Virus record (IMG/VR): IMGVR_UViG_3300021387_000463
Location: 235,001-299,000 of that record
Origin: a virus
Lineage: Duplodnaviria > Heunggongvirae > Uroviricota > Caudoviricetes
DNA: 64,000 nt
Reading direction: 5' to 3' (one strand)
Within the stretch, counting starts at the first letter, position 1; each line of letters starts with the position of its first letter. This document shows positions 3,843 through 32,184 of the stretch, one piece after another. The notes beneath the pieces were generated by a model, which was not told where the DNA came from, made no database searches, and was given only the letters and a program-made list of their open reading frames with translations. A program made the position numbers and the translations under genes.

Positions 3843-4062
3843 ACTCCTTAGACTTAAAAAAGTACATCTATGCTCCTATCTGAATAAGGTAGGGGCATTT
3901 ATATTTTAATCTATAATAATACAAAAAATGGGTCATGTCTCACGGCATAACCCATCATCATTCACCTAAATTCACAATTATGACAAACAAATAGGTGCTT
4001 GGACTTATCACCAACATTACGTTTGCGCTACATTAAATGTGCCTTACACCCATTTCTCTTTG

Positions 4063-4158
4063 ACAAGGCGGTCGGATTCGAACCAACGTTATACAATCCA
4101 TGAAATTGTAGTCACATCTTTCTTGTGATGCCGCATGAACCAACTCTGCTACACCTTG
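4063..4158 (-). tRNA. degenerate type-II (long variable arm) tRNA-like gene, anticodon undetermined
   Basis: Acceptor CAAGGTG/CGCCTTG, D-arm GCAGAGTTGGTTCATGC, T-arm GTTGG-TTCGAAT-CCGAC, long variable hairpin TACAAT..ATTGTA. The anticodon stem GCATC/GATGT closes an 8-nt loop ACAAGAAA that lacks U33. No encoded CCA. Confidence 0.7.
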
Positions 4159-28993: not shown

Positions 28994-29377
28994 TCAATCA
29001 TCAACTATTATACAGTTATCAATATGTTTATCCTTGAAATAAGAGAATAGAAGGTTTGTTATGTCAAAGGCTTCATATGTATTTATCCTCAATGGATACC
29101 TGATAAAGTAATCCCTAACAACCCATTCAACAAGTTTGGTGTTTCTGTTGCGATTTCTTAACTCAGTCTCAAAATAGCTAATCATGCATTGTTTGTGACA
29201 AAGTACCTTTGCTTCACGATACTGTCCTTTCACATACATGTGTGAACCATCATACTTTGCTATCCTATACATATAGGCAACTAGCTTATCGTAGTAACCC
29301 ATAATCTTCATAAACTTGATGTACTCTAGTACAATTTCCCTTCTAGTCTTCTTCCTAGGTTTATCTGTCCACCTCAT
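28994..29377 (-). CDS. hypothetical protein (EYIKFMKIMG family)
   Basis: Paralog of 29408-29779. Confidence 0.7.
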   Translation of the reverse strand: MRWTDKPRKKTRREIVLEYIKFMKIMGYYDKLVAYMYRIAKYDGSHMYVKGQYREAKVLCHKQCMISYFETELRNRNRNTKLVEWVVRDYFIRYPLRINTYEAFDITNLLFSYFKDKHIDNCIIVDD

Positions 29378-29407: not shown

Positions 29408-29779
29408 TTAACGTATTAACTTAATATATCTCGAATAACCTTTATCTTTCAAGCAAGATAAGAACAAATCAGCTAGTATATCAGAGTTTTCAAACGGTTT
29501 TGAATAATAATCTTCAAATAAATATACTCTCTTGATAAAGCCATCATTCAATGTATAAAAGTACGTTCCCATATCTTTTGCATACTTATAGAAAGAACCA
29601 CTCATAAAATATTTTGAAATACTAGTTGTGGAATTCCTATTTGGCTCTGAAAAGTAGCAAGAAGTATTATCTTTAAAGAACAATTTGCAAATATTTGGGA
29701 ATATTCCCATTATTTTCGCAAATTTAATGAATTCACGTGTAACTGTATCAATATAAATTGCTTTAGCCCTCTTTGACAT
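29408..29779 (-). CDS. hypothetical protein (EFIKFAKIMG family)
   Basis: Start MSKRAK; paralog of 28994-29377. Confidence 0.7.
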   Translation of the reverse strand: MSKRAKAIYIDTVTREFIKFAKIMGIFPNICKLFFKDNTSCYFSEPNRNSTTSISKYFMSGSFYKYAKDMGTYFYTLNDGFIKRVYLFEDYYSKPFENSDILADLFLSCLKDKGYSRYIKLIR

Positions 29780-30394
29780 TATATTTACTCTTAAGAAGTT
29801 GAAGTTGTATCTTTGCATTCAGCTCTTCCCATGATATTGGTTCGTAGTTGTTGTTATCCACACCAACATCGTACTGCATTGGATATGTATGTACTAATCG
29901 TGGTAGGTCTTGGCCTTTTTTGTCTGGACCACTGTGTACGTGTCCATAGCACTGATACACTAGTTTCTTCGGTTCACGATATACACCAGCATAACAAAGG
30001 AATGGGAAGTGATTAAGCCAAAGCTTTCTACCCTCAACCTCTATCAGCATTTGCCAAGTAACATGCTTAAACAGCTCTTGCTCTGCTGTTGTAGACATGT
30101 TCTTTTGGTCGTGATTACCTTTAATCAGTATAATATCTCCGTTCAGTTGCTCTCTAATTTTCTTCCAAAACTCATACCCACCCCATGCAAAATCACCGAG
30201 GTGGAATACAAGTCCATCGGCTGGTACTTTCTTGTTCCAAGCTTCGATTAACTTGTAATCCATTTCCTCAATGTCCTTAAATGGACGGTCACAGAACTTA
30301 ATTATATTTGAATGTCCGAAATGAGTACCTAGGTGTCGGAGGTGAAAAACACCTCCGACCCATCATTATATTTAAAGTCTACCTTTGTTGACAT
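29763..30394 (-). CDS. calcineurin-like metallophosphoesterase, interrupted after codon 21 (candidate translational bypass, else pseudogene)
   Basis: ATG at 30394 reads MSTKVDFKYNDGSEVFFTSDT-TAG. Eight nt on, the frame resumes (T)HFGHSNIIKFCDRPF...FHLGDF...GNHD...HFP...GHVH. All other motifs are intact. Confidence 0.85.
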
Positions 30395-30486
30395 ATTTTA
30401 TTAATTTAATTATCAATTAATTATTCACATTTTAGCAAATATATAAAAATTATTCTTCATTTCCAAATTTATAGGGTTAAAAAAAA

Positions 30487-31272
30487 CTAAAGCGATTTTT
30501 TATGAGTTTCGTACCATATTTTCTTATATTCTTTTATTTTTTCTCTATTCGCATTTTGGTACTTTTTCATATATTCTTTTCTTTCCTCTTTACGCTTTAG
30601 ATAACGCTCTTTTTCGTATTGTTTTATTTTTTCTTTGTTATTTCTGCGATATGTTTTACTTTTTTCTAACAGTTCCTTTTTATTATCTTGATAATATTCA
30701 TGACATCTTGTTTTGTTTGATTCCTTTAATTCTTCCTTATGGATTTTGTAGTATTTTTTTTGATATGATTTTTCTTCTTCTTTGTGGCTATCATACCATT
30801 TTTTCCTATACTCCTTTATTGCCTCTTTGTGGCTTTCTTTATATTTTCTACTATTTTTATTGCATTTTTCTTTATTCCTATTGTAATAGTCTCTAGCCCA
30901 AAGTAACATTTCTTTTTTATGTTCTTTGAACCATTTTTTCTTTAGTCCTTCACGTTCTTCCTCAGTTAATTTTGAAAGTTTTCCTACTTGACCACCTTTC
31001 AGTTTATTTAAAACATCATAAGGGCTATTTTCTTTGTATTCATTTATCCAATACTTTTCTCGTTCAATACCTTCCTCTACAGTTAAATCATTCTCAATTA
31101 TAATCATCTTAGGATGTTCAACGTGATGTTCACTACTGAATTGATAAGTTCTTTCGGTTGGAATATGTCTATGTTGGTAGTGTCTGCTTTTTGGGTTAAC
31201 AGTTCTACCAACATAGACAGTATTAAATTCTTCCCACAAATAAATGTAAATATTGTCTCTTTTTTCACTCAT
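30487..31272 (-). CDS. GIY-YIG-like homing endonuclease with Lys/Glu/Tyr-rich repeat tail
   Basis: YIYLWEEFNTVYVGRT...R..QH...EREKYWI...N, followed by ~15-aa KYY/HKEE helical repeats; very AT-rich. Confidence 0.75.
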   Translation of the reverse strand: MSEKRDNIYIYLWEEFNTVYVGRTVNPKSRHYQHRHIPTERTYQFSSEHHVEHPKMIIIENDLTVEEGIEREKYWINEYKENSPYDVLNKLKGGQVGKLSKLTEEEREGLKKKWFKEHKKEMLLWARDYYNRNKEKCNKNSRKYKESHKEAIKEYRKKWYDSHKEEEKSYQKKYYKIHKEELKESNKTRCHEYYQDNKKELLEKSKTYRRNNKEKIKQYEKERYLKRKEERKEYMKKYQNANREKIKEYKKIWYETHKKSL

Positions 31273-31323
31273 AATAATACCGTTTTATTATAAATATCAT
31301 AATAAATGAAAAAGTCGCATTTT

Positions 31324-32184
31324 TCACAAAAGTATTTTTAAGTCCTCTATATTCAGTGGATTATCTATAACCTCCATTGAGCCATCCTTGTATGTGACGA
31401 ATACTGTTTTATCTTCATTCATTGTAATTTTTTCCACTTTATCCTTCTCAATGTCCTTGTGCATGTATGTAAAGAAACATTTTGAAAGGAACATTACATC
31501 ATAAACTGACAATGGCGTTATGGTATTCTCAGAACCATCTTCCAATATTCTATCAAACTCCTTGTCTCTAATGGCGCAAGACTGGACGTAATTATCCATG
31601 AAAGTTTCCCACTTAAACTGCAAAATAGGTAACGTAGAGTCATTTACAATAATTTTATTCCAACAATCGTTCCATGTGATAGATGTCTCAGATTCATGAT
31701 TTGAGATATTATCGAGGGTTGTGCGTGTGATAAACCAACAATCCCCACCAAGTTCCTCAATCAATGCCTTTTCATTTGGGAATCTTACATCATCAATAAC
31801 ATAATTTTTTTCTTTATCAATCATTTGGCGTATCTTGTTTACGTGCCAATCCGTATCGTATTTCCTTATTAGGTCTGTTCCAATGAATTGTAACATATGT
31901 CTAACATCCTTTATTACGACACAATTACAAGTTTTTGTTACAATATCGATTGGAATTCCAGTCTCATCAGCAAGTATCTCGCACATATCCTTACCGATTG
32001 TAACACCAATATCATATTTTTCTGCTTTTGCCTTATTCAGTTCATCTAGAGAAATATCCAATAAATCAGCACATAATTGCTTTAACGGCAAAGCAAAATA
32101 GATTCGTTCATAACCAAATCTCTCACATATTTTTGCTAGTTCAGTCTTCCCTGACCTAGCTCTGCCAGCAATACCGATTATCAT
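31324..32184 (-). CDS. deoxynucleoside monophosphate kinase (T4 gp1-like)
   Basis: IIGIAGRARSGKT...FALPLK...RHMLQFIGTD...IDDVRFPNE...HESE. Confidence 0.9.
   Translation of the reverse strand: MIIGIAGRARSGKTELAKICERFGYERIYFALPLKQLCADLLDISLDELNKAKAEKYDIGVTIGKDMCEILADETGIPIDIVTKTCNCVVIKDVRHMLQFIGTDLIRKYDTDWHVNKIRQMIDKEKNYVIDDVRFPNEKALIEELGGDCWFITRTTLDNISNHESETSITWNDCWNKIIVNDSTLPILQFKWETFMDNYVQSCAIRDKEFDRILEDGSENTITPLSVYDVMFLSKCFFTYMHKDIEKDKVEKITMNEDKTVFVTYKDGSMEVIDNPLNIEDLKILL

Follow-up and report, generated by a model that had tools for sequence, protein, structure and literature searches.

A candidate natural stop-hop in a metallophosphoesterase gene family of giant phages

An interrupted phosphoesterase gene and its predicted joined product

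In a 412,753-bp virus genome of 36% G+C (IMG/VR record IMGVR_UViG_3300021387_000463), a metallophosphoesterase gene is interrupted by a stop codon and two further bases within the first metal-binding motif of the encoded enzyme, and comparison with related genes makes it probable that ribosomes hop over the interruption, in a programmed short translational bypass or natural 'stop-hop', to make the full protein. The gene lies on the minus strand of the 64-kb stretch of DNA analyzed here, which we call the window and to which coordinates refer unless they are given as genome positions. The first part of its open reading frame (ORF; 30332-30394) has 21 codons, M...VFFTSDT (MSTKVDFKYNDGSEVFFTSDT), starting with an ATG at 30394-30392 and terminating at a TAG at 30331-30329. 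This stop is followed by GT (30328-30327), ACT (30326-30324) and CAT (30323-30321), and with the CAT begins the second part of the ORF (29763-30323; 186 codons and a stop), which reads HFGH... and continues via GD, GNHD, NH and GHVH motifs. Counted from the ACT, the downstream frame starts with T-H-F-G-H-S-N-I-I-K-F-C-D-R-P-F and is open to the stop at 29765-29763. The last codon of the first part, ACC (Thr, 30332-30334), would be in the P site of the ribosome when the stop enters the A site and is the putative take-off codon, while the ACU (Thr, 30324-30326), located 8 nucleotides (nt) 3' of it, is the putative landing codon; the gap UAGGU (30327-30331), consisting of the stop and GU, would be left untranslated between them. 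The same tRNA, with a GGU anticodon, reads both ACC and ACU, and a tRNA-Thr(GGU) gene is present in the phage genome, which carries about 50 tRNA genes and a transfer-messenger RNA (tmRNA). A hop from the first codon to the second would yield a calcineurin-like phosphoesterase of 21 + 186 = 207 amino acids (aa), ...FFTSD-T-HFGH..., with the D-x-H motif intact. Abutting the take-off codon on its 5' side is an RNA hairpin (30335-30359) with a 10-bp stem and a U5 loop (arms GTCGGAGGTG/TTTTT/CACCTCCGAC; fold about -18 kcal/mol), the last base of which precedes the ACC. The hop had been proposed in a preliminary description of this DNA, and its coordinates, letters and 207-aa length all proved correct when the minus strand was read again.

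The downstream part of the gene matched PF12850 with 31.1 bits (cut-off 27) and PHROG 547 at 2.6e-43, and a gapless homolog matched PDB entry 1xm7 (aq_1665) at 3e-11. All five metallophosphoesterase motifs tested (D-x-H, GD, GNH(D/E), H and GH-x-H) were present, and motif I was complete only in the hop product, since its Asp is encoded in the first part and its His in the second. The sequence ...FFTSDTHFGH... is uninterrupted in the nearest GenBank phage scaffolds (50-55% identical) and likewise in most IMG/VR relatives, and the window thus has a net gain of 8 nt in this gene. The Pfam Metallophos profile matched the gapless homolog L007 from position 2 and the downstream part of the window's gene only from position 17; the first part of the ORF corresponds to profile positions 2-16 and is homologous to the N-termini of the gapless relatives. 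This shift in the start of the profile match places the first beta-strand and the motif I Asp, a metal ligand, in the 21-codon mini-ORF, and the alignment with 1xm7 gave the same layout. As the record is a metagenome-assembled virus, a sequencing or assembly artefact was considered. However, the identical hairpin-ACCTAGGT-ACT junction was found in at least seven other assemblies (L215, L216, L217, L042, L028/L067, L035 and L068), which come from different samples and show sequence differences at nearby positions, thus excluding an assembly artefact, and dozens of contigs have related gaps that differ in length; the probability that the record is simply wrong here is close to nil. Megablast of the locus against GenBank phages returned no matches, and the relatives used in this study came from protein-level and metagenome searches.

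The first part of the ORF ends just after a strong hairpin and in this respect bears a superficial likeness to a leader or attenuator. It might be supposed, then, that two products are made, with the 21-aa peptide ending at the UAG, the rest arising by re-initiation and the hairpin perhaps serving as a terminator or pause site. However, the first possible start codon of the downstream frame (ATG, GTG and TTG considered) is Met 30263, and the residues that separate this Met from the landing site (H2, H5, I8 and R14) are nonetheless invariant; the conserved THFGH...RPF stretch could therefore be translated only by ribosomes coming from upstream. In addition, no U-tract is found 3' of the stem, and the supposed leader is the conserved beta-strand 1 with the metal-binding Asp, homologous to the gapless enzymes. 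Given the five-motif active site of metallophosphoesterases, a fragment without this Asp should be inactive. Together, these points make separate products highly improbable. Gene callers cut the enzyme to a 166-aa fragment without the active-site Asp, and these enzymes are consequently mis-annotated in phage catalogues.

Gap-bearing relatives and the conserved hairpin

Related genes were collected by two kinds of search, namely a DNA pattern spelling only the V-F-F-T-S-D codons, in which a gap was not required and which was run on IMG/VR and on JGI/ENA metagenome contigs, and two protein-based scans; IMG/VR contains at least 507 homologs of the phosphoesterase. In total, 98 distinct junctions were obtained, 34 of them gap-bearing and 64 gapless; the protein-based searches alone account for eight distinct gap-bearing cases. 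The results showed that a stop lies directly 3' of the take-off codon in 34/34 gap-bearing junctions (TAG in 20, TAA in 9 and TGA in 5), that the His codon is in all 34 immediately preceded by a codon sharing its first two letters with the take-off codon, and that this landing codon is in every case the first cognate codon 3' of take-off. The shift from take-off to landing was 5 nt (11 junctions), 6 nt (5), 8 nt (11), 9 nt (1), 10 nt (4), 12 nt (1) or 14 nt (1), so that all three reading-frame relations are represented, and the untranslated stretches of 2-11 nt had sequences such as TA, TG, TAG, TGA, TAGGC, TAGTA, TAGTG and TAGGTAA, among others. The take-off/landing pairs were ACC/ACT (22), ACC/ACC (5), ACT/ACT (3), CTG/CTG (2), ACT/ACA (1) and TCC/TCC (1). 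These pairs covary, and they match the residue of gapless sisters: L101 has TCC/TCC beside L198 with TCT (Ser), and L196 has CTG/CTG beside the gapless L197 and L200 with TTA and CTA (Leu). The preliminary description had set against its own reading the case that all relatives have an uninterrupted gene and no conserved hairpin; what was found instead are 34 relatives that keep a stop-gap between S-D and H, with one residue's codon on either side of it, behind a hairpin. The palindrome that it had pointed out in the 8 nt ACCTAGGT is not conserved among the gap variants and is therefore incidental.

A hop is the one mechanism that gives S-D-x-H in 34/34 junctions, which neither read-through nor a -1 or +1 shift can do. 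Some features of the locus could nonetheless be cited for a different repair, whether by -1/+1 frameshifting, by stop read-through (perhaps via a CUA-anticodon tRNA) or by removal of the gap from the mRNA through editing or cutting and ligation: the -1 frame is open from 13 codons 5' of the gap and contains a slippery-like G GTG TTT TTC, the phage encodes a CUA-anticodon tRNA, and genes of RNA-repair type are found in the neighborhood of some relatives, such as the P-loop kinase gene upstream in L012. However, the -1 product, ...VFHLRHLGTHFGH, is without the Asp of D-x-H, and read-through gives D-x-x-x-H or runs out of frame, with the next stop in the window 9 codons on; both failures to restore D-x-H had been pointed out before and were confirmed by translation. 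Frameshifting in the -1 direction was rejected also for want of any conserved downstream structure and as unfit for the in-frame and +1 gap classes. Splicing or editing would need neither matched flanking codons nor a stop, and an Rfam scan gave no match at the locus. No single alternative serves shifts of 5, 6, 8, 9, 10, 12 and 14 nt with three different stops, and we give these other repairs little credence.

Reassignment of the stop (e.g. TAG as Gln) was rejected as well. TAG ends 32 of 321 long ORFs, in keeping with the standard code, same-frame ORF pairs are joined by TAG 6 times versus 35 times by TAA, and the relatives use TAA and TGA at the site; a phage-encoded release factor was searched for and none was found. 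The CUA-anticodon tRNA gene (amber-suppressor type) and the tmRNA gene are located outside the window, at genome positions 134142-134227 and 129249-129604, respectively, and either product could modulate events at a UAG-paused ribosome. A crude scan for other hop sites in the genome produced 1279 candidates, mostly due to chance, among which the phosphoesterase locus was third by hairpin energy; the other top candidates that were checked, at genome positions 155364 and 261755, proved to be gene arrangements of an ordinary kind.

The 40 nt 5' of take-off fold with -15.9 to -20.3 kcal/mol in 34/34 gap-bearing junctions, in comparison to a mean of -5.0 kcal/mol in the gapless ones (n = 64; Mann-Whitney p 4e-16). 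The stem always ends with the base before the take-off codon, and this position is kept also in L196, which has an 11-nt loop, and in L132 and L167, which have a different stem sequence. Among 18 distinct sequences the stem is 100% paired, three of its pairs are altered on both sides (G:C to C:G twice and G:C to A:U once), and one pair is A-U in 9 sequences and G·U in the other 9. Such G·U pairing fits an RNA of the sense strand and not a DNA or protein-binding palindrome. On a tree of the enzyme body, which offered 7 independent contrasts of gap state, a strong hairpin went with the gap in 6-7 and was never opposed to it (p ~0.016). Much of the stem is prescribed by the DNA pattern, which biases the codon-identity statistics computed over all junctions; for the eight genes from the protein searches, synonymous codon differences amounted to 26% in the 3' arm plus take-off codon versus 54% in the body, and 62% of the same 3'-arm and take-off codons differ in gapless genes. 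The stem of the window is built from the rarest codons of the genome (TCG and TCC, 2.4% and 3.4% of Ser codons; ACC, 15% of Thr codons), and the joint probability of the stem codons given the peptide is about 1e-7. The preliminary description had called a perfect GC-rich hairpin striking in so AT-rich a genome, and among the roughly 22 perfect hairpins of at least 10 bp in the 412,753-bp genome (1-7 in shuffled genomes) it does have the highest G+C content.

Other possible signals around the gap received no support. The GGAGG of the 5' arm, considered as a Shine-Dalgarno (SD) stimulator, varies to GGGGG, GGACG and CGGCG while pairing is kept; an extension of the stem onto the take-off codon, by pairing of upstream GG with its CC, is not conserved across the family; and no conserved structure was found 3' of landing, where gap-bearing genes are, if anything, less structured. 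A search of cultured and metagenome-assembled genomes (MAGs) with the hairpin pattern gave 4 matches, none of them in a phosphoesterase, and pointed to no host. A Nitrospinota MAG (L209 and L210) has two copies of the 25-nt hairpin sequence, both outside phosphoesterase genes, which are probably an unrelated repeat or a terminator-like element.

The downstream frame is complete (170-197 aa) in the gap-bearing contigs wherever the contig permits, and the GD, GNH, H and GH-x-H motifs show no variation in the alignment even among sequences of 28-47% identity. The ratio of nonsynonymous to synonymous change (pN/pS) was 0.056 between the window and its gap-bearing sister L042, 0.055-0.066 in a well-supported clade of 5-nt gaps, and at most 0.3 for deeper pairs with saturated synonymous sites, giving about 0.04-0.3 overall in the gap-bearing clades. 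These values bear on the view that the gene is inactivated, the 8-nt insertion being a knockout allele or a scar (e.g. left by a homing endonuclease) and paralogs covering the function. Consistent with that view, the genome holds three other Metallophos paralogs, one of them only 800 bp away, and homing-endonuclease genes flank the insertion site. However, gap-bearing lineages under strong purifying selection, 34 in number, each with an intact frame and invariant catalytic residues and all keeping stop, matched codons and hairpin, are not what inactivation predicts, and we consider it extremely unlikely. The preliminary description had favored programmed recoding over decay, and the codon covariation, the compensatory changes in the stem, the intact and selected gene and the 34 relatives all lend support to this choice at the level of sequence.

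Several points nevertheless weigh against a programmed hop. The majority of the gap-bearing loci were retrieved by a DNA pattern in which part of the hairpin is already spelled out, and this introduces an ascertainment bias into several of the statistics. Two gapless loci from IMG/VR, L184 (-16.3 kcal/mol) and L011 (-14.9 kcal/mol), both of an I-W-F-T-S-D sub-family, have a comparable hairpin ending at the Asp codon, which means that such a hairpin also occurs where there is no gap; these two loci may have lost a gap recently and precisely, or they may be intermediates in which the hairpin came first. At a further locus, L069 (AUXO015066799.1, 7-70), the junction reads ACG TAG GT ATG CAT, where the flanking codons are a near-match only; either the landing is near-cognate here or the copy is decaying. 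A duplication made by the insertion event could likewise produce matched flanking codons, the three paralogs in the genome could buffer the loss of this gene, and the known synthetic stop-hops are inefficient (about 1%). In L069 itself, the hairpin and a 196-aa downstream frame are intact.

Neighboring genes, homing endonucleases and the origin of the gap

The conserved gene order at the locus is a deoxynucleoside monophosphate (dNMP) kinase, the phosphoesterase, one or two small ORFs and a second phosphoesterase. The dNMP kinase gene of the window (31324-32184, minus strand; Pfam PF21448) is by synteny the conserved upstream neighbor in the relatives, and homing-endonuclease genes have been inserted repeatedly between it and the phosphoesterase. 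In the window this place, directly upstream of the phosphoesterase, is taken by a free-standing GIY-YIG homing-endonuclease gene (30487-31272, minus strand; PF01541, E 4e-8, 33.8 bits with a cut-off of 22.6), whose product is predicted to cleave DNA. The sister L042 is without window positions 30494-31330, with clean flanks, and has the same 8-nt gap; the gap is thus independent of the GIY-YIG gene, which is a presence/absence polymorphism at a fixed intergenic site. A GIY-YIG homolog lies upstream of a gapless gene in L137, and a LAGLIDADG gene with a helix-turn-helix (HTH) domain is found in L004, L007, L008, L005, L031, L034 and others. An endonuclease gene was located directly upstream in 9/27 gap-bearing versus 5/62 gapless loci, an enrichment (Fisher p 0.008) among loci that are not independent of one another. 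A strict linkage between gap and endonuclease was rejected in view of L042, with its gap and no GIY-YIG gene, and of L137, L128 and L140, where endonucleases accompany gapless genes. In L031/L099 (IMG/VR 3300028833_000172), the LAGLIDADG frame stays open through to the 21-codon first part, and the two form a single frame that reaches the putative hop site.

The near-identical 412,435-bp phage L007 has an enzyme body that is 97% identical in protein, and homology to the window begins only at 30314, just 3' of THFGH; upstream of this point L007 has the LAGLIDADG gene and an unrelated, gapless and hairpin-less N-terminus, which looks like a co-conversion tract ending inside the gene. On the tree, the distribution of gap states needs 17 changes, at least 7 of which are forced by well-supported branches. 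Our favored idea for the origin of the gap, in parallel to T4 MobA/gene 60, where such protection has been shown, is that it breaks the most conserved DNA of the gene, which would be a homing-endonuclease target. This idea of protection fits the placement of the gap where the coding DNA is most conserved and the recurrence upstream of endonucleases of two families; an alternative is that the gap has a regulatory role.

With regard to transcription and initiation, a promoter-like box of TAnnTTTG type, TTTTATATATTTG, was read directly at 30436-30448 (minus strand), 42 nt 5' of the ATG, and would presumably serve this gene. With up to 2 mismatches, the box occurs at 23 sites in the window versus 10.5 expected. 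Boxes of TAnnTTTG type are known from Bacteroidota, and the recurrent box hints at this phylum as the host; it is also consistent with the absence of SD sequences, and the start of the phosphoesterase gene has none. Downstream of the phosphoesterase, the two small ORFs at 29408-29818 (~123-136 aa) and 28994-29377 (127 aa), both on the minus strand, are apparent tandem paralogs (...EFIKFAKIMG... and ...EYIKFMKIMG...); neither had a match in Pfam or PHROGs, and the former is absent from L007 and L042. Elsewhere in the window, ARAGORN reported a 97-nt tRNA-like gene with a 4-base anticodon (aaga) at 4062-4158 (minus strand), a second copy of which lies elsewhere in the genome and for which no Rfam tRNA match was obtained at E up to 1, and positions 3919-3990 (minus strand) gave a sub-threshold match to the Bacteroidetes FopS sRNA family (26.7 bits versus a gathering score of 56).

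Predicted mechanism and comparison with known bypass systems

Three general features of translational bypassing are found at this locus. Two frame segments of one conserved protein are parted by non-coding bases, the codon in the A site at take-off is a slow-to-decode one, being a stop in 34/34 junctions, and the take-off and landing codons agree in their first two bases in all 34, with ACC and ACU of the window both read by the GGU anticodon. The anatomy of the locus, its conservation, the covariation of codons and of the stem and the purifying selection are thus observed, whereas the occurrence of a hop, its efficiency and a role of the hairpin as a 'spring' are inferred. In the mechanism we propose, a ribosome would translate the 21 codons from the ATG at 30394 and then undergo a decoding pause with peptidyl-tRNA-Thr on the ACC in the P site and the UAG in the A site. 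The mRNA path covers roughly 12-15 nt 5' of the P site, and therefore the 3' arm of the stem (-10 to -1) would at this pause be inside the ribosome, with the 5' arm and the loop just out. Refolding of the ~18 kcal/mol stem at the mRNA exit would draw the message through once the codon-anticodon pairing opens, the peptidyl-tRNA would leave the first codon and re-pair at the second, and decoding would restart at CAU. A 10-bp stem would predict a displacement of up to about 10-12 nt, compared with 5-14 nt in the junctions. The hairpin would then be the sole conserved stimulator apart from the stop and the codon match. Taken as a whole, our model would have this hairpin motor drag the mRNA by 5-14 nt at a stop-paused ribosome, in an efficient and minimal bypass that needs neither a nascent-peptide signal nor a take-off stem-loop, would have the gap kept because it destroys a homing-endonuclease site in the D-x-H DNA, and would have giant phages gain, lose or exchange the cassette on at least 7 occasions; we put this combination forward tentatively, as a possibility that may well prove wrong in one of its parts.

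For about 35 years, work on bypassing has been based on T4 gene 60 with its direct homologs and on one yeast mitochondrion. The preliminary description had likened the present locus to gene 60, and the likeness extends to the matched codons, the stop and the 5' stem-loop; it does not extend to a take-off stem-loop, a nascent-peptide signal or an SD sequence within the gap. As in T4 gene 60 and MobA, one protein would be made from two discontinuous frames, the codons are matched, a stop lies right after take-off and a stem-loop lies 5' of it (10.1101/2022.08.31.505936; PMC5009743). The setting is again a phage, with a homing-endonuclease gene directly upstream in the window and in many relatives and with the gap in highly conserved coding DNA. 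For gene 60 itself, a 5' stem-loop that forms on exit from the ribosome has been proposed to propel bypassing (10.1101/2022.08.31.505936; 10.1101/2024.12.09.627546). In contrast to gene 60, where 47 nt are left untranslated (a shift of 50), the gap here has 2-11 untranslated nt (shifts of 5-14), no take-off stem-loop encloses the take-off codon and no downstream structure is conserved. Only 21 residues have been made at take-off, which renders a nascent-peptide signal of gene 60 type (KKYK..., 25-30 residues back) impossible, and the N-termini vary outside VFFTSD; nor is there room for an SD sequence in the gap. The 5' hairpin, which is the least conserved element among gene 60 homologs, is invariant here. 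Furthermore, the gene encodes a phosphoesterase and not a topoisomerase II large subunit, without homology between the two, and its endonuclease neighbors are GIY-YIG, LAGLIDADG or none. Given the different gene and the lack of a take-off stem-loop, a long nascent signal and an in-gap SD sequence, the locus is not a member of the gene 60/MobA cassette.

A similar layout is that of the synthetic stop-hops in E. coli, which have a stop between two matched codons (Weiss, Dunn, Atkins and Gesteland 1987, as reviewed in PMC5009743). There, too, the peptidyl-tRNA re-pairs a few nt on, and the 6-nt class of the present series (ACC UAG ACU and CUG UAG CUG) has the same arrangement. Those were, however, laboratory constructs of low efficiency with no dedicated stimulator, whereas the present junctions are natural and conserved, have an adjacent hairpin and include out-of-frame variants (+5, +8, +10 and +14). 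The 'byp' elements of Magnusiomyces capitatus mitochondria are similar in being short inserts in essential coding sequence that are bypassed between matched or near-matched codons with a slow codon in the A site (PMC5009743; 10.1101/2022.08.31.505936), but they are 27-55 nt long, occur in 81 copies in many genes and use an unassigned sense codon under relaxed mitochondrial decoding. The present gap occupies a single site in a single gene family, has a genuine stop codon and a specific hairpin on its 5' side, and would be crossed by bacterial ribosomes. Natural short hops have likewise been proposed for the Streptomyces phage Hau3 terminase and, over 29 nt, for plaA of Prevotella loescheii (PMC5009743; PMC10732093). 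Unlike the present family, these are unconfirmed single cases with no comparative series of gap lengths and codons, and Hau3 uses a rare UUA and no stop.

A review of 2016 stated that no natural stop-hops were known and that shorter counterparts of gene 60 "have long been presumed" (PMC5009743), a survey of 2022 reported no other phage case of bypassing (10.1101/2022.08.31.505936), and our full-text searches found no report of this phosphoesterase family. The family amounts to a natural mutant series, with seven shift lengths, three stops, three codon families, compensated stems and gapless sisters with and without the hairpin, and it could be used to test whether folding of the mRNA behind the ribosome suffices for forward movement, an idea that is debated for gene 60 (10.1101/2024.12.09.627546). 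If the reading given here is true, these genes would be the first natural family of stop-hops, and phages would have arrived a second time, independently of T4 gene 60, at a solution to the same problem.

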